Assembly (NCBI GenBank): GCA_036009605.1
Contig: DASYLL010000251.1
Coordinates: 1 to 59,364, forward strand
DNA length: 59,364 bases
Direction: 5' to 3'
Source: Thermoanaerobaculia bacterium
Lineage (GTDB): Bacteria; Acidobacteriota; Thermoanaerobaculia; Gp7-AA8
A program made the position numbers and the translations under genes. The notes under the pieces are model-generated. The model was not told the DNA's origin. It worked only from the letters and a program-made list of their open reading frames with translations, and ran no database searches. This document shows positions 8,222 through 44,129 of this stretch, piece by piece. How positions within the stretch are numbered: the first letter of the stretch is position 1; every line of letters starts with the position of its first letter.

Positions 8222-8358
8222 ATCATAATCCGTCTTGCTGTCATCCCGAGCGTCGAGCGAGGACCTGTGCGGGCGGGGCGAACAAACAGAAGCTTCGTGC
8301 CCCACACGCCCAGGTCCCTCGCTCGACGCTCGGGATGACAGCCAAGACGGTTATGATT
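8222..8358. repeat. ~137-bp near-perfect palindrome in a divergent intergenic region
   Basis: 8222-8267 (atcataatccgtcttgctgtcatcccgagcgtcgagcgaggacctg) is the reverse complement of 8311-8358 apart from a few indels. Confidence 0.85.
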
Positions 8359-8369
8359 GTTGGCTCAAT

Positions 8370-12135: not shown

Positions 12136-12145
12136 TGCCGCGCCT

Positions 12146-12397
12146 GTGAGTGCCACCGGCAGACGAGTCGAATTTCTTGCGCGCGCAATCGTGAATCGCC
12201 TCGAAGACCGCGGTCTCGTCGAGTTCGTCGACGCAGAAGCGGGCATCCTCGTCGTCACGAAAGCGATCGAAGAAAACTTCGGCGCGATCGACTTGCTCGA
12301 GCGCGAAGCCCGTCAAAGACTCGGCGACCGCGCCACCGAAGCGCAGGTCGACGCCGAGATGGCGCGTCTGGCGTTGGAGAGGAACATCATTTTGTAA
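12146..12397 (+). CDS. small hypothetical protein (possibly DUF507-like)
   Basis: 83-aa helical ORF with a GTG start. The family name is tentative. Confidence 0.4.
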   Translation: MSATGRRVEFLARAIVNRLEDRGLVEFVDAEAGILVVTKAIEENFGAIDLLEREARQRLGDRATEAQVDAEMARLALERNIIL

Positions 12398-12401
12398 GGA
12401 C

Positions 12402-12480
12402 GTTGTCGGTTGTTGGTTTTCGGTTGTCTGCACCTTTCGGCAATGCACCGCAGACAACCGACAACTGACAACCGACAACG
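12402..12480. repeat. intergenic hairpin built from GTTGTCG / CGACAAC heptamers
   Basis: cgttgtcggttgttggttttcggttgtctgc pairs with gcagacaaccgacaactgacaaccgacaacg (31 bp, 3 mismatches). Starts 5 nt after a stop codon. Confidence 0.85.
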
Positions 12481-12492
12481 ATCGCAGATCCT

Positions 12493-14019
12493 ATGTCCTA
12501 CGAGAAAAACGTCGAAGAGCTGGAGCGCCGCAAACAACAGAGCGAGCTCGGTGGCGGACAAGCCCGCATCGATCGCCAGCACAACGACGGCAAGCTGACC
12601 GCGCGCGAACGTGTTGCGCTCCTCTTCGATCCGGGCTCGTTCCAGGAGCTCGATCAACTGGTCATGCATCGCTCCACCGACTTCGGGATGGAGAAGCAGC
12701 GCGTGCCGGGCGACGGTGTCGTCACCGGCTACGGCACCGTGCAGGGCCGCCTCGTCTATTCATTCGCGCAGGACTTCACCGTCTTTGGCGGATCGCTCTC
12801 CGAAACGCACGCCGCGAAGATCGTGAAGATCATGGATCTGGCGATGAAGAACGGCGCGCCGGTCGTCGGCCTCAACGACTCCGGGGGCGCCCGCATTCAG
12901 GAAGGCGTCGTCTCCCTCGGCGGCTACGCGGACATCTTTCTGCGCAACACGCTCGCATCGGGCGTCGTGCCGCAGATCTCCGCGATCATGGGACCGTGCG
13001 CGGGTGGCGCTGTGTATTCGCCGGCGATCACCGACTTCATTCTCATGGTGAAGAAGACGAGCTACATGTTCGTCACCGGTCCCGATGTCATCAAGACCGT
13101 CACGCATGAAGAAGTGACGAAAGAAGCACTCGGCGGCGCCGAAACGCACAATCAGGTTTCCGGTGTCGCGCACTTCGCGACCGAATCGGATGAAGACTGC
13201 ATCGCGCTGATTCGCGAGCTGCTGTCGTTCATGCCGTCGAACAATCTCGAAGAGCCGCCGCGCGTCGCAACGACCGATGACGTCAATCGCGTCGACGTCG
13301 ATCTCGATACGTTCGTTCCCGCGAATCCGAATCAGCCGTACGAAATGCGCGAGCTGATCAAGACCATCGCGGACGAAGGTCACTTTCTCGAAGTGCATCA
13401 GCACTACGCGCGCAATCTCGTCGTCGGCTTCGTTCGTCTCAACGGACAGTCGATCGGCGTCGTCGCCAATCAGCCCGCGTTTCTCGCGGGCGTGCTCGAC
13501 ATCGATGCATCGCGCAAAGGCGCGCGCTTCGTGCGCTTCTGCGATGCGTTCAACATCCCGCTGCTTGTGCTCGAAGACGTTCCCGGATTCCTGCCGGGGA
13601 CGGGACAGGAGTACGGCGGCATCATCATTCATGGTGCGAAGCTGCTGTATGCGCTTGCCGAAGCAACCGTACCGAAAGTCACGGTGATCACGCGCAAGGC
13701 TTACGGCGGTGCGTACTGCGTGATGAACTCGAAGCACATTCGCGCGGACATGAACTTCGCGTATCCCACCGCGGAGATCGCGGTGATGGGTGCGGAAGGC
13801 GCGGTCAATATTCTTTATCGCGGCTCGGATGACCGCGAAGCGCGCGTTGCCGAGTACAAAGAAAAGTTCGCCAACCCCTACATCGCCGCCGAGCGTGGCT
13901 ACATCGACGAGATCATCGAGCCACGCTTCACGCGCCGGAAGCTGATCACGACGTTCGCCATGCTCCGGAACAAGCGCGACCGCAATCCACCCAAGAAACA
14001 CGGGAACATTCCGCTGTAA
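12493..14019 (+). CDS. pccB: acyl-CoA carboxylase carboxyltransferase subunit (propionyl-CoA carboxylase beta / methylmalonyl-CoA carboxyltransferase type)
   Basis: Typical N-terminus ([29 protein letters not shown]), [10 protein letters not shown], and full two-domain length of 508 aa. Confidence 0.9.
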
Positions 14020-14111
14020 ATTGCGCGTGCTTTAAATGTAACAACGACTGTAACAACAGGCGTTCACTCCACAAATCCGAAACCAATCATTCAACGCACC
14101 GGATTGCTTCG

Positions 14112-14129
14112 GTGTTCGATATCGAACAC
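14112..14129. promoter_or_regulatory. perfect 18-bp palindrome (operator or terminator stem)
   Basis: gtgttcgatatcgaacac is its own reverse complement. It is followed by tgcttttgtttt and lies between pccB and the TonB receptor. Confidence 0.4.
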
Positions 14130-14327
14130 TGCTTTTGTTTTCAACGACTTACGAGCTGAGTTGGCTTGGCAGACGCGTTGCGGATAATGGCGGAAACAGA
14201 CTAGTCGGGAACGAAGGAGTGAGTTCGTCAGGAGTTTTCCAAAAGTTGATTTTCTGAAACGTTGTGTTACGGTTCCGCCCACTCGGTCTCAGTGGACGCG
14301 GTCGTCCACCCCACGAAAGGAGCAGGC

Positions 14328-17300
14328 ATGAAGAGGCTTTTGGTAGTACTTTTTTGCGTCCTCATCGCGTCCACGGGCGCATTGATGGCTGCGGTAACTA
14401 CAGGAACGATCCAGGTGATCGTGACTGATCCCTCCGGCACCGCGCTGCCGGGCGTCACGGTCACGGCAGCAGCCGCTGACAGCACCACGCGTCGTACAGA
14501 GGTCACGAACGAGCAGGGCATGGCCTCTCTCGTGGCACTCGATCCGTCGCGCCAGTACGTCGTCGACGCGTCGCTCGAAGGCTTCGGCAAGACGCAGACC
14601 AAGAACGTCGGCGTCAGTTCGTCGCAGACCGCCACGGTCCGCATCAACCTGTCGATGGCTTCGGTGAGCGAGTCCATCACGGTCACCGCGGATGCGCCGA
14701 TCGTCGATACGACCAGCGCCGCGACCGGCCAGGAGATCACGCTCGAGCTGACGGAGTCGCTGCCGACCGGCCGCTCCTACCAGAGCTATCTGCAGCTCGT
14801 CCCGGGCGTCATGCCGACCAACCCCGGCGCTGCCCTCGGCGATAACCCCGCCGTCCGCTCCGGCGTGAACTACTCGGACATCGGCGGCGACCTCGGTACG
14901 TCGACCGACAACTTCTACTACGTGGAAGGCATCAACGTCACCGACCCGGTCGACGGCACCTTCGGCGCGAACCTCAACACTGAGATCATCCAGGAGCAGA
15001 AGGTTCTCACCGGCGGTATCCCCGCGGAGTTCGCGGGCGCGCCCGGCCTGCTGTCCTCGGTCGTCACCAAAGCCGGCAGCAACAACTTCTCCGGCTCGGT
15101 GAACTACTACACGCAGAACGACTCGCTCGTTGCCGACAACCAGAACACCCCGAACGCCGGCTTCTCCACGTATGACACCGCCTTCACCTTCGGCGGCCCG
15201 ATCATCCGCGACAAGGCCTGGTTCTTCGGCAGCTACCGCATCATCTATCGCGAAGACGACGTCGTTCCGGTCGGTTCTTCGACGATCCTCCGCAACGTCA
15301 CCAACGAGAGCGAGCAGGCGTTCGCCAAGGTGTCGTGGCAGTTCACCAGCAAGGATCGTATCTCCGGTACGTACACCGACGATCCGACCGAAATCTCCGG
15401 TCAGCGCGACAACTCGCTCTTCAACTCGCGCGACTTCTCGCAGGAGACGGGCGGCAGCCGCTTCACCGTCGACTACAACCGCGTGTTCAACCAGAACCTG
15501 CTGCTCGATGGCTCCATCGGCAAGCACAATGGTGAGACCTCGCGCATCGCCGCCATCCAGGAGATCCGCAACGACATCGTTTTCGTCGGCTCGGATACGC
15601 ACCCGCTCTCCGCTGAGCAGCTCGGCGGCGAAGGCAACATCAACCTCAACGAGCGCGACACCGACTTCTGGCGCGGTTCCGTCGAAGGCATCTTCGACAC
15701 GAACTTCGGCAGCCACACCACCAAGTTCGGTATCGAGTCCGAGAAGCACATCAACTTCCGCAACAGCAACTTCGTGGGCGGCACGCAGTACACCTCCCTC
15801 GACTCGCGCTATGCCGGCAACAACTTCAATGCGGGCGACCTCGTCCGTACGAACAACCCCTTCACGGCCATCCGTTTCGACGTCAGCAATGGCAGCGACA
15901 CCGACGGCCTGCTGAACACGATCAACGCCAGTGCGAGCAAGGCCGCGTTCTACGCGCTGCTCGACCTCGATCACAACGGCACGATCACGACCGAAGAGCT
16001 CCAGACTGCGCTGGTCTTCAACAAGACCGTCGGCAATCCGAACGGCTCGGTGAACTACTACCGCCAGATCCAGACTGCCGAAGGTCCGCAGGAAACGCAG
16101 ACCGAAGGCCTGACCTGGTACCTGCAGGACACCATCCAGTACGGCAAGTTCGCCCTCAATCTCGGCGTTCGCGCCGAGCGCTGGGAGCACCTGGCCACCA
16201 CCGGCGAGAACATCTATACGTTCGACTGGACGTATGCGCCGCGCCTCAGCCTCGTGTATGACATCCTCGGCAACGGCCGCCAGAAGGTCTCGGCCTACTA
16301 CGGCAAGTACTACGATCCGATCCGTCTGAACATGACCAACTTCGCCGGTACCCTCACCGGCCGTGTTCTCGACGAGCAGGTATGGGTCGGCGACCAGTGG
16401 GTGACGTACCGTACCCGCGGCGGCGCCGTCGTTCAGGACGCCTTCTTCTCGCCCACCACCAAGACCCCGTACACCGATGAAATGCAGCTCGGCTACCAGA
16501 TCGACCTCGGCAACAACATGAGCTTCGAGGCGATCGGCGTTCGCCGTCAGACCCGCGACATCCTCGAGGACTATGACCTCGGCGTCTTCGCGGACGACGC
16601 GCACTGCCTCTCCACCGATCCGGCAGTCTTCGCGGATTGCGGCTTCAAGGAAGGCTTCGAGCCCGGCAACCCGAACGCGGCCGGCTCGCTCTACCTCGGC
16701 CTCGACTACTTCGGCTACACCACGAACCCGGGCTCGAACTTCGTCATCGGCACCCTCGCCGGCGGCAAGCGCGACTACCAGGGTCTCGACCTGATCTTCC
16801 GCAAACGCTTCGCCGACAACTGGCAGGCGCTCGCTTCCTACACGTGGGGCGATTCCAAGGGCAACACGAACTCCGACTCGAACGCTGACTTCCAGGGTGA
16901 CGTTCTCTGGCTCGACCCGCGCGCGCCGAATCAGTACGGCCGCCAGCCGGGCAGCATCGAGCACCTCTTCAAGGTTGCGACGTCCTACCGCCTGTTCAGC
17001 CGTCTCGAGCTCGGTGGCGTCTTCAACTGGAACTCCGGCACGTACGCGAGCCGCACGTTCCGCTCCTCGCGTCGTAACCTTCCGCTCCGCGTTTCGACCG
17101 GTGATGCCTATGTGTTCAACGGCGTGAAAGCGCGCTGGATCCCGGACGACACCGTCGGCTCGCTCAAGAACCCGGCGTACGGTACGGTCGACCTCCGCGC
17201 TCAGTGGAACCAGCCGCTGCCGCGCAACACCTCGCTCGAGCTGTTCCTCGACATCTTCAACGCCCTCGACGATCAGGCCGCGATTCGCGAGCAGGATCTC

Positions 17301-26783: not shown

Positions 26784-26860
26784 GCTGTGGTGTAGCTCAG
26801 TTGGTAGAGCGCCGGATTGTTAATCCGGTGGTCGTAGGTTCGAGCCCTACCGCCACAGCC
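26784..26860 (+). tRNA. tRNA-Asn (anticodon GTT)
   Basis: Acceptor stem gctgtgg/ccacagc, D-arm tagctcagttggtagagc, anticodon stem-loop ccgga-ttGTTaa-tccgg, T-arm gtaggttcgagccctac. No CCA is encoded. Confidence 0.9.
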
Positions 26861-27032
26861 AATTCGAAACAACTCCGTAGAAAGCATTTAGCAGCACCCC
26901 CTCTTCTCACCGATTTTGGCGTTTCGGCCCAAGTGTCTAATCGCGCGTCTAATCGGCGCCGTGACGACGTCGTTTCGCTCCATTTCGAACGAGACGATCT
27001 GCGGGAAGGGGTCCTTGCATTCACTCCGATGC

Positions 27033-27254
27033 ATGGACCTCAAGAACCTCATCTCGCGCATCGAGCTGGCAGCCTCGCTCCGCGTCCACCCACAGACGAT
27101 AGCGAAATGGACGCGGCTCGGCCTCTTCCCGGAGCCGAAGGAATGCCTCTCGGACCGCGTCATCCTCTACGACCGCGACGAGGTGCGCCTCGCGCTCGAT
27201 CGGAGGAAGGCAGCGCGACGCCAGCGCGTCACGCCAAGACGTCGAAGCGTGTGA
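27033..27254 (+). CDS. excisionase/AlpA-like helix-turn-helix DNA-binding protein
   Basis: 73 aa containing ELAASLRVHPQTIAKWTRLGLFPEP. GTGA overlap with the integrase start. Confidence 0.65.
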   Translation: MDLKNLISRIELAASLRVHPQTIAKWTRLGLFPEPKECLSDRVILYDRDEVRLALDRRKAARRQRVTPRRRSV

Positions 27255-29687: not shown

Positions 29688-31853
29688 TTGGCGATGGACT
29701 CCAAAGAACTCGCAGCAGCGCTGAGACTTCAGCTGAAGCTCGATCCGCCGGTCACGGGAGGAGTGCCTAAGCTTCTCTTGGATCTGTTCATCCGATTTAC
29801 CGCCGCATGGCTCGCCCAGGAAGATCCACCGCTCAAGGAGCTTCCGCTCCGATCGCACAAAAGCCTTCGTGCCGCCATCGCAGAACACGAGAGTAAGGGC
29901 CGGCTACGCCCGAATCGGCGTTCGAAGAAAAGCAATCCAACCGACAATCAAGGCAGCGAAACAGCGAGGCAAGAGATCGCACGACAACGCGCTGAGCAGA
30001 TCAGCGAGACGCTCACCGCGGCTTTGACAAGCCTCTCTCAGCGTTTGCGCAGGCATCCGTCCGCTCAGCCGAAAGGCGATGACACCGTGTTTCTTGCCTT
30101 CGAAGTCGCCCTCGGGCAGGAGCGCTTCACCGTTGAACTAACCGGGCTACTTCCGAAAAACAGAGCGGGTCTTGGATTCCCCGAGGACGAAAGAGTGGGA
30201 TTTCTCGGTCGGCTGGTGAAGCTACACGCACCGCCAACCTCAAGTCGGTCTCGTGACGGGAGCGCTCGCTCCGAAGACGCGTCGCCGCAGCGAGATCCCA
30301 CCACGAAGAATGTCGAGCCTGTCTCGACCGTTCCGCTCGTTCGGAAGAAATTCACGCGATCCGCAATCTTGCGAGGCATGGTTTGGATCGCCGTCGTTGT
30401 CGCGGGCTGGCTGGTCGCTCGGCCGGACATCTCTACCGCCCCGCCCCTCAGCCTACCTCCAATTACCACCCACCTTCAGAGCTTCTCCGACGTGCGGTTT
30501 TCCTATGCCACTGAGCAATCAACCGCGATCAGCCCTGTTTGCGGATGTCAGAACGAGCTCGATGCGCGCTTGTGGCGCGGCATCTCTTACTTCGGCCGCC
30601 GGGCGGTGATCGAGCGTCTGTCAGGAAGCGCAGCGACCAAGTTCCTCATCACTGCCGCGTCCCCGGTACGCATTCGCTCAACTCCGTATGCCTACAACAT
30701 CGAAGGGGTGGTTTACCACTTGACAGTACCGTTCGGCGAGGCCTTCGACTCCTCAACATTGCTCAACGACGCAGTACCGAAATCTTACCGGGTTCAAGCA
30801 CGCGAGACATTTCAAGGTCCACAGATCATTTTGACTGCCGTGGGTCCGGTCCGAATCGACGCATATGGCCCGGTACCATTTGGCGCTTGGTTACCAGTCG
30901 AGGGCTCTGAGGTCTCCGCGTCGACCAGTCGCGGAATGGCGTTGACAAGCCGAACCAATGTCGTAATTACCGAACGCTACAAGCGATGGCACGCCGGCAG
31001 CGGCCACTATCCGATCGCTGATTTCGTCGGCGCTGACACCGTGATCTGGACTGAGCCGACACGCCACGTAGCTAGTTCGCCCCAACGCCGAGATATCGTG
31101 GCAGTTCGCGTCACGAATCCAGGCTTCGCAACGCGCCTCGCGATTACGCCTCACGCTGCCACCGACGATGACGGCAACGTAACGTTGCATCCACCGCCGA
31201 CGGGGGGCGTTGCCGCCGTAGATCGCGATGGACTCCTTCGGTTCACAATCGAGGATGTCGACGAGAACCTTAGCGAATTCGGCGAAGTAATTGATCGACT
31301 CAAACAGAACGATCTCGTCTGGATCCCCCGAATCCGTCAGCTAGCGGGTTCACTCTTTTATCAAGACAAGAGCGGTATGTTTCATTTGGCAGATCCTGAT
31401 CCGCCATTCCCACCGCGCCGCATGAGACTTGAGGAAGATGTGGACGCCACAGTCAAATTCCGCTATCCGCCTGTGCCACCCCGGAATGGCATCAACATAT
31501 TTGGTCAGTTACGATCACTGGTGTTTAGTAATGCCATCGGTTCGATTGCGCGCGGTACGCGCGAATACTCATTTGTGGTGCCGGCATCATTCTCTTTTCA
31601 CGACATCGCACAGTTTGCGGCCGCGGGTGGCGTGATCACGCTGCCGTTGGTCTCGGATGGCTCCTCGACCACGATTCGACTGGACGGCAGCGCGACCGTG
31701 GAGGTAAACGGGCAGCCACTTTTCGTGGAACGGCACCGATGGGCATCGCTACGTCAGATCGCTACAGGTGTTGCGCTGTGTGCATTTGCGACGTTACTTG
31801 TCTCAGGAGAAGTAATGCTTGGCGCTCTACGTCGACGCCGCAAGGATCGATAG
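29688..31853 (+). CDS. ORFan 721-aa protein with a central TM helix and a C-terminal TM helix
   Basis: Charged N-terminal ~235 aa, TM AILRGMVWIAVVVAGWLVA, ~440-aa middle domain, then terminal TM IATGVALCAFATLLVSGEVMLGAL followed by RRRRKDR. Confidence 0.6.
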   Translation: MAMDSKELAAALRLQLKLDPPVTGGVPKLLLDLFIRFTAAWLAQEDPPLKELPLRSHKSLRAAIAEHESKGRLRPNRRSKKSNPTDNQGSETARQEIARQRAEQISETLTAALTSLSQRLRRHPSAQPKGDDTVFLAFEVALGQERFTVELTGLLPKNRAGLGFPEDERVGFLGRLVKLHAPPTSSRSRDGSARSEDASPQRDPTTKNVEPVSTVPLVRKKFTRSAILRGMVWIAVVVAGWLVARPDISTAPPLSLPPITTHLQSFSDVRFSYATEQSTAISPVCGCQNELDARLWRGISYFGRRAVIERLSGSAATKFLITAASPVRIRSTPYAYNIEGVVYHLTVPFGEAFDSSTLLNDAVPKSYRVQARETFQGPQIILTAVGPVRIDAYGPVPFGAWLPVEGSEVSASTSRGMALTSRTNVVITERYKRWHAGSGHYPIADFVGADTVIWTEPTRHVASSPQRRDIVAVRVTNPGFATRLAITPHAATDDDGNVTLHPPPTGGVAAVDRDGLLRFTIEDVDENLSEFGEVIDRLKQNDLVWIPRIRQLAGSLFYQDKSGMFHLADPDPPFPPRRMRLEEDVDATVKFRYPPVPPRNGINIFGQLRSLVFSNAIGSIARGTREYSFVVPASFSFHDIAQFAAAGGVITLPLVSDGSSTTIRLDGSATVEVNGQPLFVERHRWASLRQIATGVALCAFATLLVSGEVMLGALRRRRKDR

Positions 31854-31946: not shown

Positions 31947-33260
31947 CTAGTCGTGCTCGCCCTTCATGAACTGAAAGACCAGCTCGAAAGTGCCGACGTT
32001 GTTTTGGGTCGCTTTGCCGCGCACCTTGCCGCCGTACACAGCGCGAAGCCCGGAATACATCTCGATCTTTTTGAGCCAGATATTGCAGATGTTGTAGCTC
32101 AAGGCCCCGTAGATGGCCTCCTCGCAGGAATACCAATCCCTCGCTGATAGCTGCGGGTCGTTCGGACCGGAAGAAGAGCTCTCCGGGTTGTGGTCGCCGC
32201 CGCTCAGATGGCCAAGCTCATGCAGGGCCTCGACGATGTCACCATCATCCCAGGAAGCGAAAATCTTGCCCGCAATCGCGACCTCGATCCGTGGAATCAG
32301 AGGGGCCGGGGAAGTGATGAGCGCGAGTGGGCTGTATGAGTTCTGGAAGAGGACCAGGGTACCAGCCGCCTTACTTAGCGCGCGGGCCTTGTTGATCGGG
32401 CCTTCCGCATCTACCGCCCAGTCGAAGATGTCGGCTTGGGCAAGTCCTGCGGGCCTCTCGAAGAAAAAGATCTCGCGGATGGCCATTCGGCCGTTGAAAC
32501 CGCTTGAGCGATAGGCGGTGTTCTGCCTGTCCATCAGGTGGATGACGCGCTTCGTGACCTTGTCAGCACCGCCTACTGCGTCGCGGTACTCAGTGCTGAT
32601 CGCGATGTTGATCCAAACTGTTGGGGGCAACGAGCCAGAACGGACAGCCCTTCGCTTTCCGTTAGGTTTCACGGCTGTAGCGACGAGGTCCTGCATCGGA
32701 GTTACGAGGTTGGGGTAATACACCACTTCAGGAGCCTCGACATACAGGCTCGAGGTTACGAGGTGCTCATCCACTTCGGTGGAGACGAAATAGCACTTCC
32801 GACCGGCTTGGATGTGCCCAAGTACGTCGCCGTCGTAGAACTTGGTGAAGACCGAAAAAATGTCTTCGCCTTCTACTCGGTAGGTGAACACCTCAGAAGT
32901 GTCCCGACGCTCCGACGCGACCAACTGCGCAGGGAAATCATGTCCCTCGGCGCTCAGAATGACGACGGAGAATCCGAGAATCTCTGAGTCGAGTTTGACG
33001 CGCTCCATGCTGAGGATCCGCTCGGAGACTGGGGTTCCTTTGCCCATGGCTTGCGGCAAAGGGGTAAAGAGACGTCGCGGGGCTGACCCGGCATGCAAAG
33101 AGTCTCGAAAAGTCCTGCCCGGCTGCGCCGTCGTGGAGGTTGCAAACACGAGAAGGAGAGCGAGGCCAAGCGGGCCACTGGACACCTTCAGTACGCGCGT
33201 TAGAGTGAAAGTACTTACCAGTTCACGAATATGGGTAAAAGCGTCAAGATCGCATCTCAT
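31947..33260 (-). CDS. secreted metzincin-type zinc metalloprotease (reprolysin-like)
   Basis: HELGHLSGGDH equals HExxHxxGxxH. Signal-like SSGPLGLALLLVFATSTTAQP. The start is uncertain (ATG 33260 or GTG 33185); the ORF extension to 33452 overlaps the recombinase gene. Confidence 0.7.
   Translation of the reverse strand: MRCDLDAFTHIRELVSTFTLTRVLKVSSGPLGLALLLVFATSTTAQPGRTFRDSLHAGSAPRRLFTPLPQAMGKGTPVSERILSMERVKLDSEILGFSVVILSAEGHDFPAQLVASERRDTSEVFTYRVEGEDIFSVFTKFYDGDVLGHIQAGRKCYFVSTEVDEHLVTSSLYVEAPEVVYYPNLVTPMQDLVATAVKPNGKRRAVRSGSLPPTVWINIAISTEYRDAVGGADKVTKRVIHLMDRQNTAYRSSGFNGRMAIREIFFFERPAGLAQADIFDWAVDAEGPINKARALSKAAGTLVLFQNSYSPLALITSPAPLIPRIEVAIAGKIFASWDDGDIVEALHELGHLSGGDHNPESSSSGPNDPQLSARDWYSCEEAIYGALSYNICNIWLKKIEMYSGLRAVYGGKVRGKATQNNVGTFELVFQFMKGEHD
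33230..33247. repeat. left copy of an 18-bp perfect inverted repeat
   Basis: tatgggtaaaagcgtcaa is the exact reverse complement of 33878-33895. It overlaps the recombinase ORF's first ATG. Confidence 0.9.
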
Positions 33261-33881
33261 AAACGGAAAAGACACGCAATGCATGTCGTCGTGGATCAAG
33301 CCGCGCATCAACTCGCCTACCTCACGAAAGTGGAAGTGGAACGTCTTTTCACCGCCATCCCACGTTTGGACGGACGCGACAGGCTTCTTTTTGACGTCAT
33401 CTACCGTTACGGTCTGCGTCGGCAGGAAGCGGCGCTTCTCCGCCGCGAGCACGTCGCAGAACGGATATGGATCACACGCCTAAAAGGCGGTGTTTCAGGT
33501 GAATATCCGATCCACCCGACCACTCGGCGACTCCTCTGGGACTATTTCGAGCAGCAGGAAGGCAGGCCGGGGCCGTATCTTTTTGCGACTCGGCAGAGCG
33601 GCTTGCGGCCGATGTCCCCCTCGACGATCTATCAGATCTTCCGTCGCTACGCGGACGCCGCTGATCTGCCGGCCGACCGGAGGCATCCGCATGTCCTGCG
33701 GCACTCCATAGCCGTGCACCTCATGAACGCGGGATGGGACGCTGCCGACGTCCAGGACTGGCTGGGACACCGTGACATCGCCTCGACGATGGTCTACGCC
33801 GCGGTCACGAACAAACGCCGGGAGGCAAAGTATGAAGAGGCACTTCTCTCCGATGAGATTGCTGCAAATAACGCGAGTTGA
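33231..33881 (+). CDS. small tyrosine recombinase (XerC/D-like, catalytic domain only)
   Basis: YGLRRQEAALLRREHV..HPHVLRHSIAVHLMNAG..WLGHRDIASTMVYAAV (R..HxxR..H..Y). The start may be ATG 33279. Confidence 0.85.
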   Translation: MGKSVKIASHKRKRHAMHVVVDQAAHQLAYLTKVEVERLFTAIPRLDGRDRLLFDVIYRYGLRRQEAALLRREHVAERIWITRLKGGVSGEYPIHPTTRRLLWDYFEQQEGRPGPYLFATRQSGLRPMSPSTIYQIFRRYADAADLPADRRHPHVLRHSIAVHLMNAGWDAADVQDWLGHRDIASTMVYAAVTNKRREAKYEEALLSDEIAANNAS

Positions 33882-34662: not shown

Positions 34663-34863
34663 GTGAGCGACGAAGGTCGCCGTGGTCCCGGAGCGCTGGA
34701 CCCCCCGATTCTATCGTCCTGGGGTTCGATTTTTCCACCGATTCCCTCGCGACGAGTCGACTATTCCTCAACGCCGCCACCGCGCAGAGACGAAGTTCAA
34801 CTTGCTTCGTTACTCGACGACGAGGCAGCTGCTGATCTCGACGATCTAATACCTCTTCCGTAG
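34663..34863 (+). CDS. possible small protein with an acidic C-terminal tail
   Basis: GGAGG 9 nt before GTG 34663. Ends 24 nt before a strong terminator. C-terminus ..LLDDEAAADLDDLIPLP. The composition is otherwise unconvincing. Confidence 0.3.
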   Translation: MSDEGRRGPGALDPPILSSWGSIFPPIPSRRVDYSSTPPPRRDEVQLASLLDDEAAADLDDLIPLP

Positions 34864-34886
34864 AAACATTAGGCTATTTGACTCCT

Positions 34887-34924
34887 TGACCCGACCTTCC
34901 GTAGTTGAAGGCCGGGTCATTTTT
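34887..34924 (+). terminator. strong rho-independent terminator
   Basis: tgacccgaccttc-cgtagtt-gaaggccgggtca (13-bp stem, 1 mismatch) followed by ttttt. Confidence 0.75.
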
Positions 34925-34942
34925 GTATATTTAGAACCTTTA

Positions 34943-37423
34943 ATGTTGCCACCAATGAGATTTCTCAATGAAGGCGTTGCATATGCGCACCTCGCCCTTC
35001 AATCTGACAATGCTGCGGCCGAGGCCGCAGCACTTTCCATAGCTTTAGAAAAGCTGAATATCCCGAAGGAGAAGTACAGAATCACATTCTTAACCGGCCA
35101 AGCCGATCTGCTGCTGGAGGTCCGTCTCGGAGACCTTCGGGTCGCGTTCGAGCTCGAGTACGCCACATCGGCTACTGCGGTCAACTGGCTATTCGCCGTG
35201 CCCGTGGCGACGGCACCTATTGTTGGTGTGAACGGGGGCGAGTTCGCGCTCACCTACGTTATCCACCTGCGAGTACATCGAGACATATACCGCTCGGTCG
35301 GGGGCCTCGCGGATCAAGAGATTCTCAAGGCCATCCTTGCGGCGCCACAGGGGCGCATTGACTGCGAGGTGCTGGCAGGGTTCGGGTGGTCGGATCTACT
35401 TCTTCGAGGCCGGTTTGCATCGATAGAAGATTTCGCAAGCTTCGTTTCGTACCTCAGAAACCTGCGACTTCCCAGTGCAGGTGACCGCTACGTCTTTCGT
35501 CGCATGCTGACTTTGATCGGGTATGACTCCAGCTTCGATCTAGCTGCGAGCTCCGACATGGTCTTGCATCCTGTCATCTTTGCGCGCTGTCTGCCCACGC
35601 ACCTTCAACAAGCGGCCGATTTTCTGAAATACAATGATGGGCAATGGCGCACTTTGTTTGTCGACGGAAAATGGGACGTGCTCTCGTTGCTAGAGGCACC
35701 GAAGGGCGTATCGGCACCTGTCTTCATTCGCGAGCATTTCGAGAAGGCCATCAGTGGTGGCAACATGCGGCTCGCCGGTGTTGAGCGCCTGGAAACTCAC
35801 TTAATCACGTTCTCGAACGCCTCGGAGCCGCCAACAGACAAGGATGAACCACGTTCGTGTTCGTGCGCTTCTGCCGTGCGTTCTGGTCGGGAGCTGTTGG
35901 GCGATCCGGAAGATCCGAGAAGTTCCGCACGAGCGCTGCCCCAGGCGCTAGTCGTCGCGGTTCGAAACGTGTTGAATCTCCTCAAAACCACCTCACGCGA
36001 AACCACAAACTGTTGCGATATCGTCCCGAGTCTGGTTCGCTGCGAAATCGGTCTCGATCGCCTACTCGCTCATCATCGGGAGCTTCGACGCAGATTGGCT
36101 GCTGCGTGCGAATCCGACCTAGTTTCGCTCCCAGAACGAGCACGTTTGAACGAGAGGGTAGTCAAGGCAAGGAGCGACATCGAGGAATGGTGCACCTACG
36201 CGGAACGGATCGTCAGCCAACGCACCGCGGGCCGATTCGACGAGTTTCTTACGCAAAACGAGCGCGTGGTTTCCTATCGCGGCGGCGTCCAGCAGCTGCT
36301 TTACCTCACCGATGCTCTGTTAAACGGCTTCGCGCAGCGCGTGCTTCCAAGCAATGAAACCGCGTTTATGTCGTTGTTCGATCCCGTCGATATCGTCTTG
36401 GGGCACCACATCGTTGGGTTCGTTCGGGTCCCGGTTAGATACCTGTTTACGTTGCCCTTGGCGATCGCGCACCTCTGGCACGAAGTCGGCGTACACCGTT
36501 TCTACACACAATACCGCCACCCTTTTGATGAACGAACGCGAAGCCGCCTCTCGGATTTCCGTGATGCCACTGGCGAGCGCGAAGACGTTTTGGCAGAGGC
36601 AGTTCTTTACGATCTGGCGGATACCTATGGCGATGCAGTGACCTTCGCGAAGGGCTTCGGCGGCAACTATGGCGCATTTGCAATCTCTTTAAGCAGTACG
36701 CTTTTCGAGACTGACGCGTTTAGGGCCGCGCCACCGAGTGTACAGGACGAGTATCTGGTAGCCCTGCTGTCACGACTGTACATGGTTGCCGAGTTTCAGC
36801 AGCGATATTTATTTGTGCGTCGCAAAATGCAAAAAAGCGCACTTTCCATCGACCGGGCAGAGATTGACAACTGGATTCCCGATCCAAAACGGTTTGTTTG
36901 GCCACGGCTTCAGCGAATCGTGGAACTTCTGCGCGGCCGGTTGCTCGATCAGGCTCGCTACAGAGCGCGGGAGATTCAACTTCGAGATTCGATCGTTGAC
37001 ACTGCCTGGCGCGAAATCGGATCGCCAGCGAGGGTACTGCAGCGACAATATCTGAAAGACCTAGCGTGGCAGGAAGATGCGGCGTATGCGGCGCCGCCAT
37101 CGGCGTGCGCTCAAGAGTTGTTCGAACACATTAACGCGGGAACGGTTGTCGTTATCCCCGAAGACGTGGACATCAACGATCTCTTTCTGCTACTTCAGCA
37201 AAAAATGGTTACTGAACTCGCCAACACACCCGACAATGCGACCTCTCCGGTGGACTCGGCCGGCTTTTTCTTGCCGGTCGCCGCATTAGTACGCAGTAGT
37301 GTTCTTGCCTACTATCAACGCGAGATGACGCCCCGACCGAGAGGTGAAGGTATTGCTAACGTGTGGCGAGGCCGCCTCGCGGCGAGGCCAAAACAAAGCC
37401 AAGACATATTCGGCAGGAAATGA
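34943..37423 (+). CDS. ORFan ~826-aa protein (N-terminal Lrp/AsnC-ligand-domain-like repeats are a tentative reading)
   Basis: Long uninterrupted ORF. The TTG 34886 start lies inside the terminator, so ATG 34943 or 34955 is preferred. No catalytic or NTPase motif recognised. Confidence 0.65.
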   Translation: MLPPMRFLNEGVAYAHLALQSDNAAAEAAALSIALEKLNIPKEKYRITFLTGQADLLLEVRLGDLRVAFELEYATSATAVNWLFAVPVATAPIVGVNGGEFALTYVIHLRVHRDIYRSVGGLADQEILKAILAAPQGRIDCEVLAGFGWSDLLLRGRFASIEDFASFVSYLRNLRLPSAGDRYVFRRMLTLIGYDSSFDLAASSDMVLHPVIFARCLPTHLQQAADFLKYNDGQWRTLFVDGKWDVLSLLEAPKGVSAPVFIREHFEKAISGGNMRLAGVERLETHLITFSNASEPPTDKDEPRSCSCASAVRSGRELLGDPEDPRSSARALPQALVVAVRNVLNLLKTTSRETTNCCDIVPSLVRCEIGLDRLLAHHRELRRRLAAACESDLVSLPERARLNERVVKARSDIEEWCTYAERIVSQRTAGRFDEFLTQNERVVSYRGGVQQLLYLTDALLNGFAQRVLPSNETAFMSLFDPVDIVLGHHIVGFVRVPVRYLFTLPLAIAHLWHEVGVHRFYTQYRHPFDERTRSRLSDFRDATGEREDVLAEAVLYDLADTYGDAVTFAKGFGGNYGAFAISLSSTLFETDAFRAAPPSVQDEYLVALLSRLYMVAEFQQRYLFVRRKMQKSALSIDRAEIDNWIPDPKRFVWPRLQRIVELLRGRLLDQARYRAREIQLRDSIVDTAWREIGSPARVLQRQYLKDLAWQEDAAYAAPPSACAQELFEHINAGTVVVIPEDVDINDLFLLLQQKMVTELANTPDNATSPVDSAGFFLPVAALVRSSVLAYYQREMTPRPRGEGIANVWRGRLAARPKQSQDIFGRK

Positions 37424-37429
37424 GAGACG

Positions 37430-37864
37430 ATGCCTAAAGTTCTGCTCGACACTTGGACATTTCAGCAATACTTGGAGGATGAGTCTCAACTCAGTGAAGA
37501 TGCGCAAAGTATCATACGAGCCGCAGTAGCGGCCAATGATCACCTTTATGTGTCCGCAATTTCGTATCTTGAGGCGCGTCTGACGGCACGAGCCAGCGGT
37601 CTATCCCGCCACGACCTTGACTCGCTGGACGAGAGTCTGGAACGTTCGAGAATACAGATATTGCCCGTGACCCAGTGGGTAGTTGTATCTATTGATATGA
37701 TTCCTGATTCAGCGACGCTGGCAGATCGAATCGCCGCCGCGCAAGCCCTATCGGGCAACTATACTCTGCTGACAGGTGTTGAGGACATAATCTGTACGGA
37801 GTTAGATTGCGTTCGAAGTAACCCTGCGCACATGGGCACCACGGAGGTCATCGGAAGTGCCTAG
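37430..37864 (+). CDS. PIN-domain ribonuclease (VapC-like toxin)
   Basis: VLLDTW.., LYVSAISYLEA, LADRIAAAQAL and LLTGVED match the four acidic PIN positions and the VapC pattern. Starts 6 nt after the upstream stop. Confidence 0.8.
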   Translation: MPKVLLDTWTFQQYLEDESQLSEDAQSIIRAAVAANDHLYVSAISYLEARLTARASGLSRHDLDSLDESLERSRIQILPVTQWVVVSIDMIPDSATLADRIAAAQALSGNYTLLTGVEDIICTELDCVRSNPAHMGTTEVIGSA

Positions 37865-37888
37865 CGCGTGTCGGCTTGCTTGCGGGCC

Positions 37889-40800
37889 TCAATGAGACGT
37901 GTTCGCAGGCGCCGCGTCCCGTAGGCTTTTCCCAGCCATAAAGCCCTCAAGGAAGACGCCAAAAAAGAGCCCGAAGGCAGTCCATGTGAGTATCAGTGTA
38001 GGATAAAAACGGAACGCTAAATAGGGGGCTAGATTGCTCGAGACGGTGTTCCCCGTAGTTAATCCCCAAATGTGGCCCAGATCCAACGTGGTCTCTCGGG
38101 GTAGAACCCTCAAGAAATACGGATAGCGATGCTGATGCAGTGGATGCGGACCCGCCTCGGCTTCATACGCGACCTTGGCGTGGTTTGCGCCGTGAGGCAT
38201 AGGATGCGTCGCCAGCGGAGTGTCATGAAGAGCGTGACTCGTTCCGAATATTGCGGACATGAGTATCGCGATTCCGAATGCATGAGATAGCGCTAGCGCA
38301 ACGACCCGTCGTGCTGCAGCCGCCTTCTCCCGTGTGTTCAGGGCATCGCTACCGGATTTTTCTGCGCGCTTTGCAACTTCGCGGGACACAAAGAAGCCGG
38401 TCGACAAGTATGACAACCCGATAAGAAGAAGAAGCGCTAGTGACGTTCCGGTCAGAGCAAAGTCGTAGCTATGATCAACCTCAACGATGAGAGCCATTGG
38501 GACCGCAGTAAGTCGCGCGAGGCGAGGCAGTAGGCATTCGAACCAATACCCCTTCTCAGGCGACAGGCGTTCTCTGCTCGCGGACTTGCGCATACCACGA
38601 ACGAACGTAACGACCGCCCCAATGATAACGGCCGCGGACAGTGCGAAGAAGCCTGCGCCCTCGAGCCAATGGAAGTTGAGGAGATCCATGGCGACTGCCC
38701 AGGCGTATGCTAGAAGCAACACCAACAGCGGCAGCCACGGATTGGTCGCGAACCTGTAGAACGTGCGAAATGATGGCGGCCACCGCTCACTCAATACGGT
38801 GTTGAGCCCTTTAATGTCTAGGCTTGCTGCCCGCCATCTAACAAAGAAATCCTGAAATAGTAGATCCTGGTGGTCGAACGCGGGCGGTCGCGGGCCCAAG
38901 ATTGCCCCGATATTGTCCAGCTCCGCCGCCCTGTAAGCCCCGGAGTTGCGTGCTGCGGGCGAGGCACCGTCTTTGATTAGAATGCTGCTGCCGGGTAATG
39001 GGCCGCGTGGTGGGGGTGGTGACAGGCAGAGTGACTCCCAGAACAGCGTTGTCGCGTTCTGACCGGCGGCGGTCGCTCCTCGAGGCTGGTGTGGCAGCTC
39101 GCCTTCCGCCTGCTGAATTAGCAAGACCGGCCATTCACAATACCAACGGATTGAATCGCGGAAGAGCATCGCGAGATGCGTCATCAGAGTAACGAATAGT
39201 GTCTGCTCGGAGTGGTGGAGGCCCCTGTGAGCCTGTAGCGATTTGGCCACCGCGAGAGCAGTCCGGGTGCAGCCGCGGAGTGCTGTCGATCGCGCGGTGA
39301 AGCTCTCTATGGGCGTCGCGAGATAGTTTTTGACCTGCTGCTGCAAGTCCTGCAAGTTGTGGCCATAGCTGTCCGCGAGCGTGGTGCGGGATGCATTGTC
39401 CAAGCCGTGCGAGATTAGATCGTGCTGATTGAAGAAGGTCGACAGACCACCATGCGCCAAGCATTTCCATGAGTCGGGCGAGCGGGACGTGAGTTCACGA
39501 TAAGTGCTAAGCGCCTCTAGCATAAGAGAGAGAGTCGGAGTGCTGTGCGACGAAAGCTCCTTCGGTAGTTGATCGATGTGGACTTTGATTGTGTCCGTGG
39601 TCGCGTTAGCGTCGCGCAGCGCAGCGGCGTGGTCGCGGAAGAAGAGCACAATTGCGTGATCGGTGGAGTTGCTGACTCGTGGAAGAAGGTGATCGAAGAT
39701 AGTTTCGCTTCCTCCATGGAACACAACTTCATAGAGGGGTTTGGCGATGTCAGATCTGGCCCGGCGCTTCGAACGCCTAATGATGAGATCGAACTCTCGC
39801 GCAATCGCGCGCGCGATCCGCGCACTCACCGTGGGCGTAATCATTGAGGCGACGTGTGGCGGAAGACGTTCGGGGCTGATCGGCTCTGTCGTATCGCTTC
39901 GCCCAACGATTTCCGCGAAACGGTGCAATTCGAGATCAGCGGCCTCCGCCGCACCAGAGGGAAGGGTGGCAAGGATGTGCGATGCAATCCGCCGCGCGTC
40001 TGAGCTCGCAAGCGAGATACCGGGTACCTGAAAGAGGTGTTCCCGAGTGAGTGCCGGAATGTCCCGCGAGACCGTGTGTAGCTGTGTTGCAAGTATTCGT
40101 ATCAGTGTGGTCTGATCGAGAGACGATTGCTCGCGCCAAGCGGCGAGCATTGACTGCGTTCGTTTCAGGATATCGGTCTCGAACGCGACGCCGCCGATCA
40201 GCCGGTCGGCGAGCTGCGAGCTGAGTCGCGACGTCTGTTCCCGCGCGATGCAATCATGGCAGAAGATGTTTCGAAGTACTTGGGGATTGGGGTTGCTGAG
40301 TATCTCGGCGATTTGTTGCTCGGTCAAGTATACCCGGCGATGCGATCCACCGGCCAGCAGTTGATCCTCGTGGCTTCTGTTCGCTAGGTGTATGAGCAGT
40401 CGCCGCAGAGAAGCGTTGGCGACCAAACGTTGATGGGTATGACTCAGATCGTTAATGCTTGGGGGACATGTGATCTGTTGAAACAGAATATCGAGCGCGG
40501 AGCGGGTCAAGCGGTCGTGCGCTGGGCTGACAATGAGCTCGCTAAGGCCGATGTAACAAGCTTCGGGGATGCCAGTGTTGGACCACGGCGAACTATACTC
40601 ACGCAACGAGTTGAATAGGGCCGTTACCGCTGCCGTGCTATGCGCCGCGCCGCGCTTGGCGAGGTGGATGGCTGTTCTGATGGTTGCGATCGTAGCGCGG
40701 ATTCTTGCATTGGCCACTCTAGCACCGTCTGCCACAGTGCGGGGTAGCGCCGCGACAGCGCGAGCGACTGATAGATCAAAATCGCTTGCATCCCAGCCAT

Positions 40801-41776
40801 CATGCAGAGCTGCATCGATTGTGCGCAGCACGCTCTCCTGAAAGTTGGCAGCGGCAACGAGAGCTTCGTCGGATTCGCGCTCGATGCGTAGTTGGGACGC
40901 GGCGCAGAGCAATTCAGTAGCTCTACCTTTCAGATCATCGTCTGAACTGTTACGGATGATGGCCGGCAGAAAGCGAAGGAGATCCTGCTGTTCATACAGA
41001 AGCTGAGCAAGATTCGACTCGTGTACCCGAACCATGTTAGAGCTTAGCGCTGCTTGGGCTTCCGCCGTGAGCATGCGATTCAACTGCTCACGCGCATCGG
41101 TGTCGCCGGCGATGACTAACGCAAACATACATCTGCGACGAAGTCGATTTAAGTACTCGTCTCTAATCGCGGTGCGCTCTGCGTACTCGAGCGCAGGATT
41201 TGTGTCTGGTTCACGCTGCAGCGTCGGAGGTAGCGCAAGAGTCCCCGTGTGGTCTTTGCTCGTCCGAAGTAACCGGCCCAGGCCTTCGACGGCGGCCTCC
41301 CTCGTCGCTGGAGCTCCTATTTGCAAGACAGTAGCTAGAGCGTCAAGCAGCCCAGGAAATAAAAGGCTCAGTATATTCTTAGGAAGGCCTGTCTGGGAGC
41401 CAAGTCGCTTGGCGAGATCGCAGTAAAAGCTTTGGTGGAGCGTACCCTCGAGAACGAGAAGTGGTAGAGCGTCAGCGAGCGCCGTTAGCAGGTGAGGCGT
41501 GTTTGCGGCCATTAGCAATGACTCTACAGACGTGGTGAGTATGCGAATCCGATCTTCTGTACGTGCGTTCGCATAGATGGTCGGCAGGTCATTCCGTTCA
41601 GGTGCATGAATCCAATCCCGGGCGCCTTCTATCATGACCATCGTGTCGCCGAAACGCGCCGCGAGGTCGGTTGCGTCGGACTCGGCGCTGAGACCCTGTT
41701 GATAGATGTCCAGCGCCGCCAACGGGTTGTTTTCCCGAAAGGCCTCGCTTACCCGATGCGCCCAGCTCTCTGTCAT
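37889..41776 (-). CDS. ORFan 1295-aa protein: ~950-aa helical cytoplasmic region plus a C-terminal 5-6 TM domain
   Basis: GGAGG RBS before ATG 41776. Hydrophobic segments near the C-terminus include WLPLLVLLLAYAWAVAM, FFALSAAVIIGAVVTFV, LALLLLIGLSYLSTGFFV, VVALALSHAFGIAILMSAIFG and LILTWTAFGLFFGVFLEGF. Confidence 0.7.
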   Translation of the reverse strand: MTESWAHRVSEAFRENNPLAALDIYQQGLSAESDATDLAARFGDTMVMIEGARDWIHAPERNDLPTIYANARTEDRIRILTTSVESLLMAANTPHLLTALADALPLLVLEGTLHQSFYCDLAKRLGSQTGLPKNILSLLFPGLLDALATVLQIGAPATREAAVEGLGRLLRTSKDHTGTLALPPTLQREPDTNPALEYAERTAIRDEYLNRLRRRCMFALVIAGDTDAREQLNRMLTAEAQAALSSNMVRVHESNLAQLLYEQQDLLRFLPAIIRNSSDDDLKGRATELLCAASQLRIERESDEALVAAANFQESVLRTIDAALHDGWDASDFDLSVARAVAALPRTVADGARVANARIRATIATIRTAIHLAKRGAAHSTAAVTALFNSLREYSSPWSNTGIPEACYIGLSELIVSPAHDRLTRSALDILFQQITCPPSINDLSHTHQRLVANASLRRLLIHLANRSHEDQLLAGGSHRRVYLTEQQIAEILSNPNPQVLRNIFCHDCIAREQTSRLSSQLADRLIGGVAFETDILKRTQSMLAAWREQSSLDQTTLIRILATQLHTVSRDIPALTREHLFQVPGISLASSDARRIASHILATLPSGAAEAADLELHRFAEIVGRSDTTEPISPERLPPHVASMITPTVSARIARAIAREFDLIIRRSKRRARSDIAKPLYEVVFHGGSETIFDHLLPRVSNSTDHAIVLFFRDHAAALRDANATTDTIKVHIDQLPKELSSHSTPTLSLMLEALSTYRELTSRSPDSWKCLAHGGLSTFFNQHDLISHGLDNASRTTLADSYGHNLQDLQQQVKNYLATPIESFTARSTALRGCTRTALAVAKSLQAHRGLHHSEQTLFVTLMTHLAMLFRDSIRWYCEWPVLLIQQAEGELPHQPRGATAAGQNATTLFWESLCLSPPPPRGPLPGSSILIKDGASPAARNSGAYRAAELDNIGAILGPRPPAFDHQDLLFQDFFVRWRAASLDIKGLNTVLSERWPPSFRTFYRFATNPWLPLLVLLLAYAWAVAMDLLNFHWLEGAGFFALSAAVIIGAVVTFVRGMRKSASRERLSPEKGYWFECLLPRLARLTAVPMALIVEVDHSYDFALTGTSLALLLLIGLSYLSTGFFVSREVAKRAEKSGSDALNTREKAAAARRVVALALSHAFGIAILMSAIFGTSHALHDTPLATHPMPHGANHAKVAYEAEAGPHPLHQHRYPYFLRVLPRETTLDLGHIWGLTTGNTVSSNLAPYLAFRFYPTLILTWTAFGLFFGVFLEGFMAGKSLRDAAPANTSH

Positions 41777-43439: not shown

Positions 43440-43806
43440 GCCGATCATCGGCCCTCGACATCAGCACTACACAACGTGACAGCAACGCATGCCGCGGCGG
43501 CCGACATCACGGAGATGGACGCGCTGCTTCACGGCCAGGAGCGGACGATCTTCGGACATCAGGCGTACTGGAAGAAGCGGACCGGCACGGTTCCGGGCCA
43601 ACGGTGTTCGTTACCGTGTGAATCGCCGCGGAACAGCGCAACGACCGCGGACGGATCATCAGAAGAACATCACCGGGGTCGGTCGCGAACCAGAGCGCGC
43701 GGCGAGCACGCGTTCAGGATCGTCAAGCAGCTGTTGGGCTTCGCGAAAGTACGTTGCAGACGGCCGGCGCTGCTCGACGGCCATCTCCACGGTGTGATTC
43801 TCAATT
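43440..43806 (+). pseudogene. IS5-family transposase remnant
   Basis: Fragments ..DALLHGQERTIFGHQAYWKK.. and ..EHAFRIVKQLLGFAKVRCRR.. resemble the IS5 DDE C-terminal region (VEHxFxxxKxxFGxxKxRYRG). They are frameshifted and truncated. Confidence 0.55.
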
Positions 43807-43808
43807 CC

Positions 43809-44060
43809 GATCAGGTCAGCATTACACCTCGATCGGTTCGGCGATCGTTGTCGAACGACCGTCGCGCGACCTTCCATGGGCTCGATCGGAGATCGTATGA
43901 CAACGCCATGTGGGAGAGCTTCTTCGCCACGCCTGAATGCGAGTTGCTCGATCGCTCGCGATCGCGGATCGCAACGAGGCCGGTGGTGAAAGTCCGATTC
44001 TTCGACAGTCTTTTGATGAGTGGCTCGAAAACACCTATACAACGCGGCGGCCCCTTTTCG
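43809..44060 (+). pseudogene. IS3-family transposase (OrfB) C-terminal remnant
   Basis: ..SYDNAMWESFFATPECELLDR.. matches the IS3 integrase-core motif DNAxxESFFxxLKxE. It is preceded by a degenerate HSDxGSQY-like LNSDQVSI. Confidence 0.55.
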
Positions 44061-44129
44061 TGCGGCCACACAGTAATGCGTCCAGAACGAGAAAGAGCAC
44101 GGTCTATGTGCACGTGAGCCAGGAAGCCG

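Follow-up and report, generated by a model that had tools for sequence, protein, structure and literature searches.

We analysed a stretch of 59,364 nt from a Thermoanaerobaculia bacterium (Acidobacteriota; GenBank assembly GCA_036009605.1, contig DASYLL010000251.1), referred to below as the window. In the cargo region of an integrative and conjugative element (ICE) inserted at a tRNA gene, it carries a cassette of three genes, here called S, A and B. A fourth gene, C, converges on B. The genes, and the two parts into which protein A divides, are as follows.

34663–34863, + strand: S, 66 amino acids (aa), matched by a hidden Markov model (HMM) made from its relatives (E = 1.7e-19)
34955–37423, + strand: A, 822 aa (826 aa with the start at 34943; the frame is open from 34886)
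34943–35812, + strand: N-terminal module of A, residues ~1–290, from the AlphaFold model and Foldseek
35840–37327, + strand: C-terminal core of A, residues ~300–795, modelled separately
37430–37864, + strand: B, 144 aa, a PIN-like protein
37889–41776, − strand: C, 1295 aa, convergent on B (1079 aa in the database gene call)

A and B are separated by 6 nt, and B and C by 24 nt. The original prediction, made by a model from the sequence, had A, the PIN gene and C at these positions and with these gaps. It gave A ~826 residues; the open reading frame (ORF) is real, but the ATG at 34955, which gives 822 aa, is to be preferred to the one at 34943, since it is the start called in the database and agrees with where homologues begin. 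The genes were also said to lie in a lower-GC part of a tRNA-linked island, and this is so: GC content is 0.52–0.59 across 34–42 kb compared with ~0.60–0.64 in the flanking DNA, and a tRNA-Asn gene and an integrase are present. At third codon positions (GC3) the values are 0.51–0.63 for S, A, B and C against 0.78–0.87 for the ICE core and housekeeping genes.

The first point to note about the A family is that it is rare and patchy. Its close homologues number 28 (35–55% identity), all of them unannotated and from metagenomes or read assemblies. A profile search of 1.84 billion proteins gave 138 representative clusters. When 185,579 GTDB species genomes were scanned with a pattern, a single relative emerged, truncated, in a Thermoanaerobaculia metagenome-assembled genome. 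The DNA around the homologues was read and searched in six frames with HMMs, covering some 12 independent genomic contexts (loci carry L numbers below, and proteins of the A family P numbers).

These contexts define the cassette. S, which gene callers often miss, adjoins A in all 13 close relatives whose sequence includes upstream DNA. It lies directly 5′ of A in L001, L003, L004, L006, L007, L008, L009, L010, L013, L014 and L022, and in L025 it is inverted, on the opposite strand, and still adjoins a kinase–A–B arrangement. Even the distant A of L021 (27% identity) is preceded by an S-like ORF (E = 0.024, the best match beyond the close S set), with no B found at that locus. B follows A in 12 of the 14 relatives with downstream DNA included, at a gap of −8 to +28 nt (orthologues in L001, L003, L004, L006, L007, L010, L011, L017, L018, L022 and L025), and a fusion of a kinase to A in L022 retains both S upstream and B downstream. 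In L008 and L009 an unrelated protein of 293–295 aa stands in place of B. The suggested coupling of A to the PIN gene is thus borne out, the pair being conserved across distant contigs with a gap of −8 to +28 nt in eight loci, and so is the synteny of A with a PIN gene in other genomes that had been proposed as a check, since 12 of 14 relatives show it with a PIN-like B. The conserved unit is S–A–B, unlike the unit drawn originally, which joined A, the PIN gene and C; the A–PIN pair stands, C does not belong, and the actual third member, S, had been overlooked.

The original prediction could tie A to no known family. Our searches agree, as A has no significant match in Pfam, NCBIfam or PADLOC (PADLOC-DB v2.0.0, in which A, B and C were searched to E ≤ 1). 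Sequence searches of PDB, with A alone and with a profile, gave at best FADD (E = 0.28) and AsnC (E = 0.25), which we treat as noise or as hints of fold, and 60 members of the family searched individually against Pfam did not converge on any weakly matching family. No published description of the family was found in the literature on DACND, DUF6876 and combinations of the effector names.

The AlphaFold2 model of A has a pLDDT of 83.5 and a pTM of 0.86. Residues 1–290 (pLDDT ~85–93) are predicted to fold into three β-α-β units, ferredoxin-like and of the kind that builds dimeric α+β barrels, resembling ABM and RAM domains. For this module, Foldseek against PDB returned PenE, coproheme decarboxylase (ChdC) and ABM monooxygenases (probability 1.0, E = 7e-4 to 1e-2, target TM-score 0.47–0.58). 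Matches of the module to AsnC/RAM HMMs are weak and no family HMM passes its threshold; the similarity of the modelled module to the dimeric α+β-barrel superfamily is at the level of fold only. Each third of the module contains an invariant G-x-x-D turn (G52/D55, G148/D151 and G242/D245). Comparison of the thirds with hhalign gives weak similarity (P = 6e-4 and 1e-3), yet the G-x-x-D motifs fall in register.

The remainder of A is a mainly helical core of ~500 aa with a small β-sheet, in which the conserved residues are C306-x-C308, C357-C358-D359, W416-C417, L-W-H513-E514-V-G, D560, D564 and R611. Modelled alone, the core has a pLDDT of 84.1 and a pTM of 0.85. It gave no match with Foldseek against PDB (best E = 0.84, TM-score <0.2), and the full model of A gave none against the viral BFVD library. 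The profile and structure searches that had been proposed as a check do not place A in a housekeeping family: the core is without a PDB or BFVD match and the N-terminus has an ABM-like fold. As judged from sequence and predicted structure, A is in no described family, and S, A and the fold of the A core are absent from every library searched.

Elsewhere in the family the core of A is joined to other domains. It is fused to TIR, at either end, in P0112, P0106 and P0092. In P0107, P0120 and P0138 the N-terminal module is replaced by the PD-(D/E)xK domain DUF4365, which serves short-Argonaute defence systems as their nuclease effector (PMC10810196). A Hanks-type kinase domain (Pkinase) is fused to the N-terminal side of the core in P0019, P0024 and P0144 and to its C-terminal side in P0063, P0072, P0076 and P0108, and P0129 combines the core with DACND/DACNH domains. 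Kinase genes also stand adjacent to the cassette in L003, L007 and L025, so that some relatives have a Hanks Ser/Thr kinase added either by fusion to A or as a neighbouring gene.

B passes the curated threshold of the Pfam PIN family (PF01850) narrowly, scoring 26.1 bits (E = 1.4e-5) where the cut-off is 23.6. PIN matches are precomputed for its orthologues in L004, L005 and L006, and the L007 orthologue scores 22.8 bits. In the window copy, acidic residues are present at the expected positions (D7, E48, D99 and E117/D118), whilst among seven orthologues D7 alone is invariant. The PIN assignment originally proposed holds, and the window copy has all four acidic residues, but a catalytic role is uncertain for the family as a whole. 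The protein found in place of B (L008 10381–11268 and L009 10343–11224) is conserved between the two loci, with the motifs GIDIYxYSRF and TGDGGFQIL. Searches of Pfam, PADLOC and PDB sequences gave nothing significant for it, and we regard it as a candidate alternative effector.

S is a proline-rich, acidic peptide with a GTG start. Its core motif, LDPPILSSWGSIFPPIPS, is followed by a C-terminal amphipathic helix; the motif of the family reads (E/D)PL-x-PP(V/I)LPSWGSMFP-x-VP-x-x-GYGDM-x-FDP. S is free of cysteine, serines are conserved in the core motif, and there is no match in Pfam and no recognisable DNA-binding domain. Between S and A lies a hairpin (34888–34927, + strand) composed of GACCCGACCTTC, a 7-nt loop and GAAGGCCGGGTC, and then ATTTTTGT. 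The GC-rich 12-bp hairpin (34888–34918) with a T-tract after it resembles an intrinsic terminator; as its stem contains one mismatch, it escaped a simple scan for terminators. RNAfold gives −26.3 kcal/mol for the S–A intergenic region. Terminator-like hairpins with a GCCCGA...UCGGGC stem and a following U-tract are present in six loci, namely the window, L001, L003, L004, L006 and L010. A search of 33.8–42.4 kb against Rfam, with the hairpin included, gave no family match.

The surroundings of the cassette are those of a mobile element. A tRNA-Asn gene (26786–26861) is followed by an integrase, and a second integrase, consisting of a truncated tyrosine-integrase catalytic domain, lies at 33231–33881 (+ strand, 216 aa, E = 4e-31). 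A weakly matching fragment of a DDE transposase is found at 43476–44117 (+ strand, E = 0.004), and ParB, DUF932 and DUF6876 genes at 44.7–48 kb. The integrases of the original prediction are thus present, one at the tRNA-Asn and one truncated, whereas its insertion sequence debris comes down to the single DDE-transposase fragment and is weakly supported. The truncated integrase and this fragment bracket S, A, B and C, which suggests a nested or secondary insertion in the cargo region of the ICE.

Comparisons by tblastx and blastp place the window element in one ICE family with L004/L016 and L006. Identities to L004 and L006 are 83% for the TrwB-like coupling protein, 69–74% for the 453-aa protein that neighbours it, 55% for DUF932, 41–46% for DUF6876, 42–43% for A and 32–34% for B; taken together, the homologues of the TrwB-like protein and of the primase region are 69–84% identical. 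The tRNA-adjacent integrase and the conjugation and maintenance genes mark the element as an ICE by its gene content. In each of these three related elements S–A–B occupies the same slot, between the integrase end and DUF932. A repeat of the tRNA-Asn 3′ end, which would mark the far attachment site, was looked for and is not present within the window, and the ICE therefore probably extends past 59364. In L003 and L010 the cassette lies behind an integrase in integrase islands, and five lineages carry it as ICE or integrase cargo. Defence genes are close by at two loci. In L010 a complete Pycsar pair (11316–14057; PycC, E = 7e-114, and PycTM) lies 0.4 kb from the cassette, and in L001 a SIR2-TIR protein followed by a 1149-aa WD40 protein (12015–16848) begins ~1.1 kb downstream of it, past a hydrolase gene.

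Two further cargo ORFs of low GC3 sit between the integrase and the cassette of the window. One (31947–33452, − strand, 501 aa) has an HELGH zincin motif and a weak match to Reprolysin_5 (E = 6e-5, below threshold); the other (29688–31853, + strand, 721 aa) has apparent hydrophobic stretches by eye and no Pfam or PADLOC match, no search for its homologues having been made. Neither these ORFs nor the 293-aa candidate effector matched PADLOC at E ≤ 0.001. Between the tRNA-Asn gene, which it directly follows, and the integrase, a small ORF (26916–27254, + strand) with a sequence resembling a helix-turn-helix (HTH), …HPQTIAKWTRLGLFPEP…, probably encodes an AlpA/Xis-type excisionase or regulator. 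The sole Hanks-type Ser/Thr kinase gene of the window (8235–10481, + strand) lies in the chromosomal flank and shares 37% identity with the kinase linked to the L007 cassette. We considered it as a partner of the cassette and rejected it, since 25 kb separate the two and the kinase gene is among housekeeping genes upstream of the tRNA-Asn gene; the window cassette is kinase-free. Opposite this gene runs a nearly full-length antisense ORF (8241–10478, − strand); antisense ORFs, which are found elsewhere in the window too, may simply reflect high GC.

An open frame as long as that of C, 1295 codons in DNA of 57% GC, is not to be expected by chance, and C shows the GC1>GC2 pattern usual in coding DNA. 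A GGAGG sequence 7 nt upstream of the ATG at 41776 supports the long form, and residues 1012–1280 contain five hydrophobic (transmembrane) segments. As the original prediction had it, C belongs to no known family that we could find, with no significant match in Pfam, NCBIfam or PADLOC. Its only match among 5.8 billion proteins was itself, and tblastn against plasmids gave none. In three ICEs of its family, L004 among them, C is missing and B is ~1.2 kb from DUF932; in the window the distance is 7.2 kb, and the extra DNA holds C and the DDE-transposase fragment. C is separate cargo, a neighbour that lies outside the conserved cassette.

These observations bear on what the cassette does. One core is combined with TIR, nuclease, kinase or PIN partners, and it resides in cargo, is foreign in composition and is rare and patchy in distribution; for these reasons we read it as a conflict or immune module. 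Specifically, our favoured reading, to which we give even weight for and against, is that S–A–B is a horizontally mobile conflict module, likeliest for anti-phage defence or abortive infection, in which A senses, B is the RNase effector and S regulates, and that it could double as an addiction module for its element. The candidate undescribed defence or abortive-type system of the original prediction survives in this form, a defence or addiction role being the best reading of the core fusions, the cargo slots and the Pycsar and SIR2-TIR neighbours, but without C as a member.

Linkage, fusions, structural novelty and context are observed; that A senses, that S inhibits and that B acts as a nuclease, and so every functional step, we infer. 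In the mechanism we propose, A would be the sensor or switch, its helical core with the conserved-cysteine cluster defining the family and, in sister architectures, being joined directly to immune-type effector domains. B would be an effector in trans, translationally coupled to A and predicted to be an Mg2+-dependent RNase (the window copy is probably an RNase), and it may dock on the triple α+β-barrel module. S would be a disordered, labile negative regulator or bait. It would be made in excess, because it is transcribed first and a leaky terminator stands between it and A. Infection, or loss of the element, would deplete or modify S, upon which A would change state and free B, and the freed B would cleave RNA and bring about cell arrest.

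Several findings weigh against this reading. No model in PADLOC matches S, A or B, and no relatives were found in plasmid searches with the region and with A (megablast and tblastn) or in a scan of IMG/VR for A. The contexts of L007, L008 and L009 look chromosomal, without obvious defence or mobile-element neighbours, and the resemblance of the A-linked kinases to the PD-T4-6 defence kinase, considered below, is one that Hanks kinases share in general. Several orthologues of B have lost the catalytic acidic residues after the first (the second to the fourth), and in part of the family B may for that reason be an adaptor rather than a nuclease. In the window itself, S retains the first half of its motif and the helix, but the GYGDM-x-FDP part is lost or diverged, and A is without the AGGAGG ribosome-binding site of L004 and L006, having TAGAACC at the equivalent position within 34864–34954. 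Because of these two changes, the local copy may be less active, weakly expressed or drifting. In the TIR-fused branch of the A family E514 of LWHEVG is replaced, which makes a catalytic role of this motif doubtful, and S was not found upstream of the TIR-fused relatives.

In L023 a 158-aa protein with an HTH-like segment (1776–2252) precedes a TIR-fused A, in the place of S; hence other branches of the family may use other small partners. We also considered A as a zincin protease, from its HEVGVH sequence, and rejected this: the spacing is HExxxH, the second histidine is not conserved, and E514 is lost in the TIR-fused relatives.

The same arrangement can be read as a tripartite toxin–antitoxin (TA) or addiction module which stabilises the ICE or island, with B as the toxin, S as a labile antitoxin and A as a chaperone or regulator, and with no phage sensing involved. 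PIN is the classic fold of VapC toxins, and a first gene that is expected to be in excess by way of the terminator, with a PIN-fold protein downstream, echoes operons in which antitoxin precedes toxin. The position of the cassette in the three related ICEs also fits, as does the divergence of A (42–43% identity), which is about that of the variable backbone genes DUF6876 and DUF932 (41–55%); the shared slot and this similar divergence suggest long co-inheritance with the element. However, no DNA-binding domain can be recognised in S, which is not next to B; many orthologues of B have degenerate catalytic residues, and the cassette occurs outside mobile elements too. A middle component of 820 aa that is elsewhere fused to TIR, nuclease or kinase domains would moreover be atypical of TA systems, and we consider an addiction module without phage sensing unlikely.

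The repeated fusion or proximity of kinases, and the small conserved peptide gene beside a large protein with conserved Cys, His and Asp residues, could instead indicate a non-immune module for signalling or peptide modification. Here A would act on S as an enzyme or receptor and Hanks kinases would phosphorylate either protein, in loose analogy to class III/IV lanthipeptide synthetases or to sensors linked to kinases, and the ABM-like N-terminus would be a cofactor-free oxygenase or a ligand-binding domain. The ABM/ChdC-like fold of that N-terminus and the conserved serines in the core motif of S are in keeping with such a role. Nevertheless, S is free of cysteine, comparison of the A core with PDB detected no LanC-like or other biosynthetic fold, and the neighbourhoods have no conserved genes for a transporter, a protease or immunity. 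The joining of the core to TIR or to the DUF4365 nuclease is ill-suited to biosynthesis, and the cargo context and foreign composition also tell against this reading. We think a modification or signalling role distinctly unlikely. Its narrower form, a class III/IV lanthipeptide-like pathway for a ribosomally synthesised and post-translationally modified peptide, was rejected: the core has no LanC match in PDB, S is cysteine-free and the window cassette is kinase-free.

The original model of A, B and C as one system, with C as membrane effector or anchor, draws on their adjacency (the 24-nt gap) and shared low GC3 (0.52–0.62). Against it, C is convergently transcribed and has no homologue anywhere searched, neither a C-like nor any other conserved membrane gene occurs in any of the related S–A–B loci examined, and the sister ICEs, which are of the same family, are without the 6 kb that holds C. 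We regard this model as highly improbable.

Broader than the favoured reading, a mobile conflict module of S, A and B, is one which we advance as tentative and think rather unlikely. S–A would represent a new superfamily of immune sensors, built on a cysteine-cluster core of ~500 aa with an unseen fold, gated by a disordered peptide and equipped with swappable effectors (PIN, TIR, PD-(D/E)xK or Hanks kinase), without an NTPase, a cyclic nucleotide or a nucleic-acid guide. If that were true, it would be a new bacterial way of sensing infection. Confirmation of a defence role alone would add a family without Pfam, NCBIfam, PADLOC or PDB relatives and with a confidently predicted new fold, would tie TIR, DUF4365 nuclease, kinase and PIN effectors to one unstudied sensor domain, and would bring in a partner peptide, small in size, that may serve as trigger or antitoxin. 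The comparison of loci also reveals a cargo slot of this ICE family in which the cassette recurs. With C removed, the relevant unit shrinks from 7 kb to ~3.3 kb (34.6–37.9 kb).

Of the known systems, the VapBC type II TA modules invite the first comparison. B is like VapC in being a PIN-fold protein of ~140 aa whose N-terminus carries an 'LLDT' aspartate (the copy in the window also has the four acidic residues), and in being encoded by the last gene of a tightly coupled operon on mobile elements. Unlike in VapBC, the gene directly upstream of B encodes the 822-aa A and not an AbrB, RHH or PHD antitoxin of ~80 aa, S is separated from B, one gene further up, with no recognisable DNA-binding fold or Pfam domain, and many B orthologues are without the second to fourth catalytic residues. 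S–A–B thus falls outside the definition of VapBC, because it has no adjacent small DNA-binding antitoxin. The toxin–antitoxin–chaperone (TAC) systems offer a possible analogy in their three-gene operon, small labile component and larger accessory protein controlling a toxin; S–A–B, however, has no homology to the SecB-like chaperone, HigBA or MqsRA, and A is far larger and domain-rich.

The dimeric α+β-barrel superfamily (ABM monooxygenases, coproheme decarboxylase/chlorite dismutase and the RAM domain of Lrp/AsnC) shares the predicted fold of the N-terminal 290 residues of A, and the G-x-x-D β-turn recalls RAM. A differs in having three units per chain together with a core of 500 aa, with no family HMM at threshold, and no catalytic or ligand residues of the ABM, ChdC or RAM families were identified in it. 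In the case of defence by Hanks kinases (PD-T4-6, Stk2-like), the kinases fused or adjacent to A do match PD-T4-6 models (E ~1e-79), as Hanks kinase domains in general do; PD-T4-6 is, however, a single-gene system, and the window cassette has no kinase.

The modular defence systems resemble the cassette in their logic. In short-pAgo SPARTA/SPARDA, Avs/STAND, Thoeris and CBASS/Pycsar, as with A, one conserved module, non-catalytic or sensory, is combined with alternative effectors (TIR, DUF4365, kinase, PIN), fused or in an operon, and the systems reside in defence islands and as cargo of mobile elements. S–A–B is unlike them in having no Argonaute/APAZ, P-loop/STAND NTPase, cyclase, SAVED or CARF; its core has no detectable relative in sequence or structure, and an obligatory small peptide, S, is unusual among such sensors. 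Thus, a mobile, modular cassette for defence or of TA-like character is of a known general kind, whilst S, A and the fold that the A core adopts are undescribed in the libraries searched.

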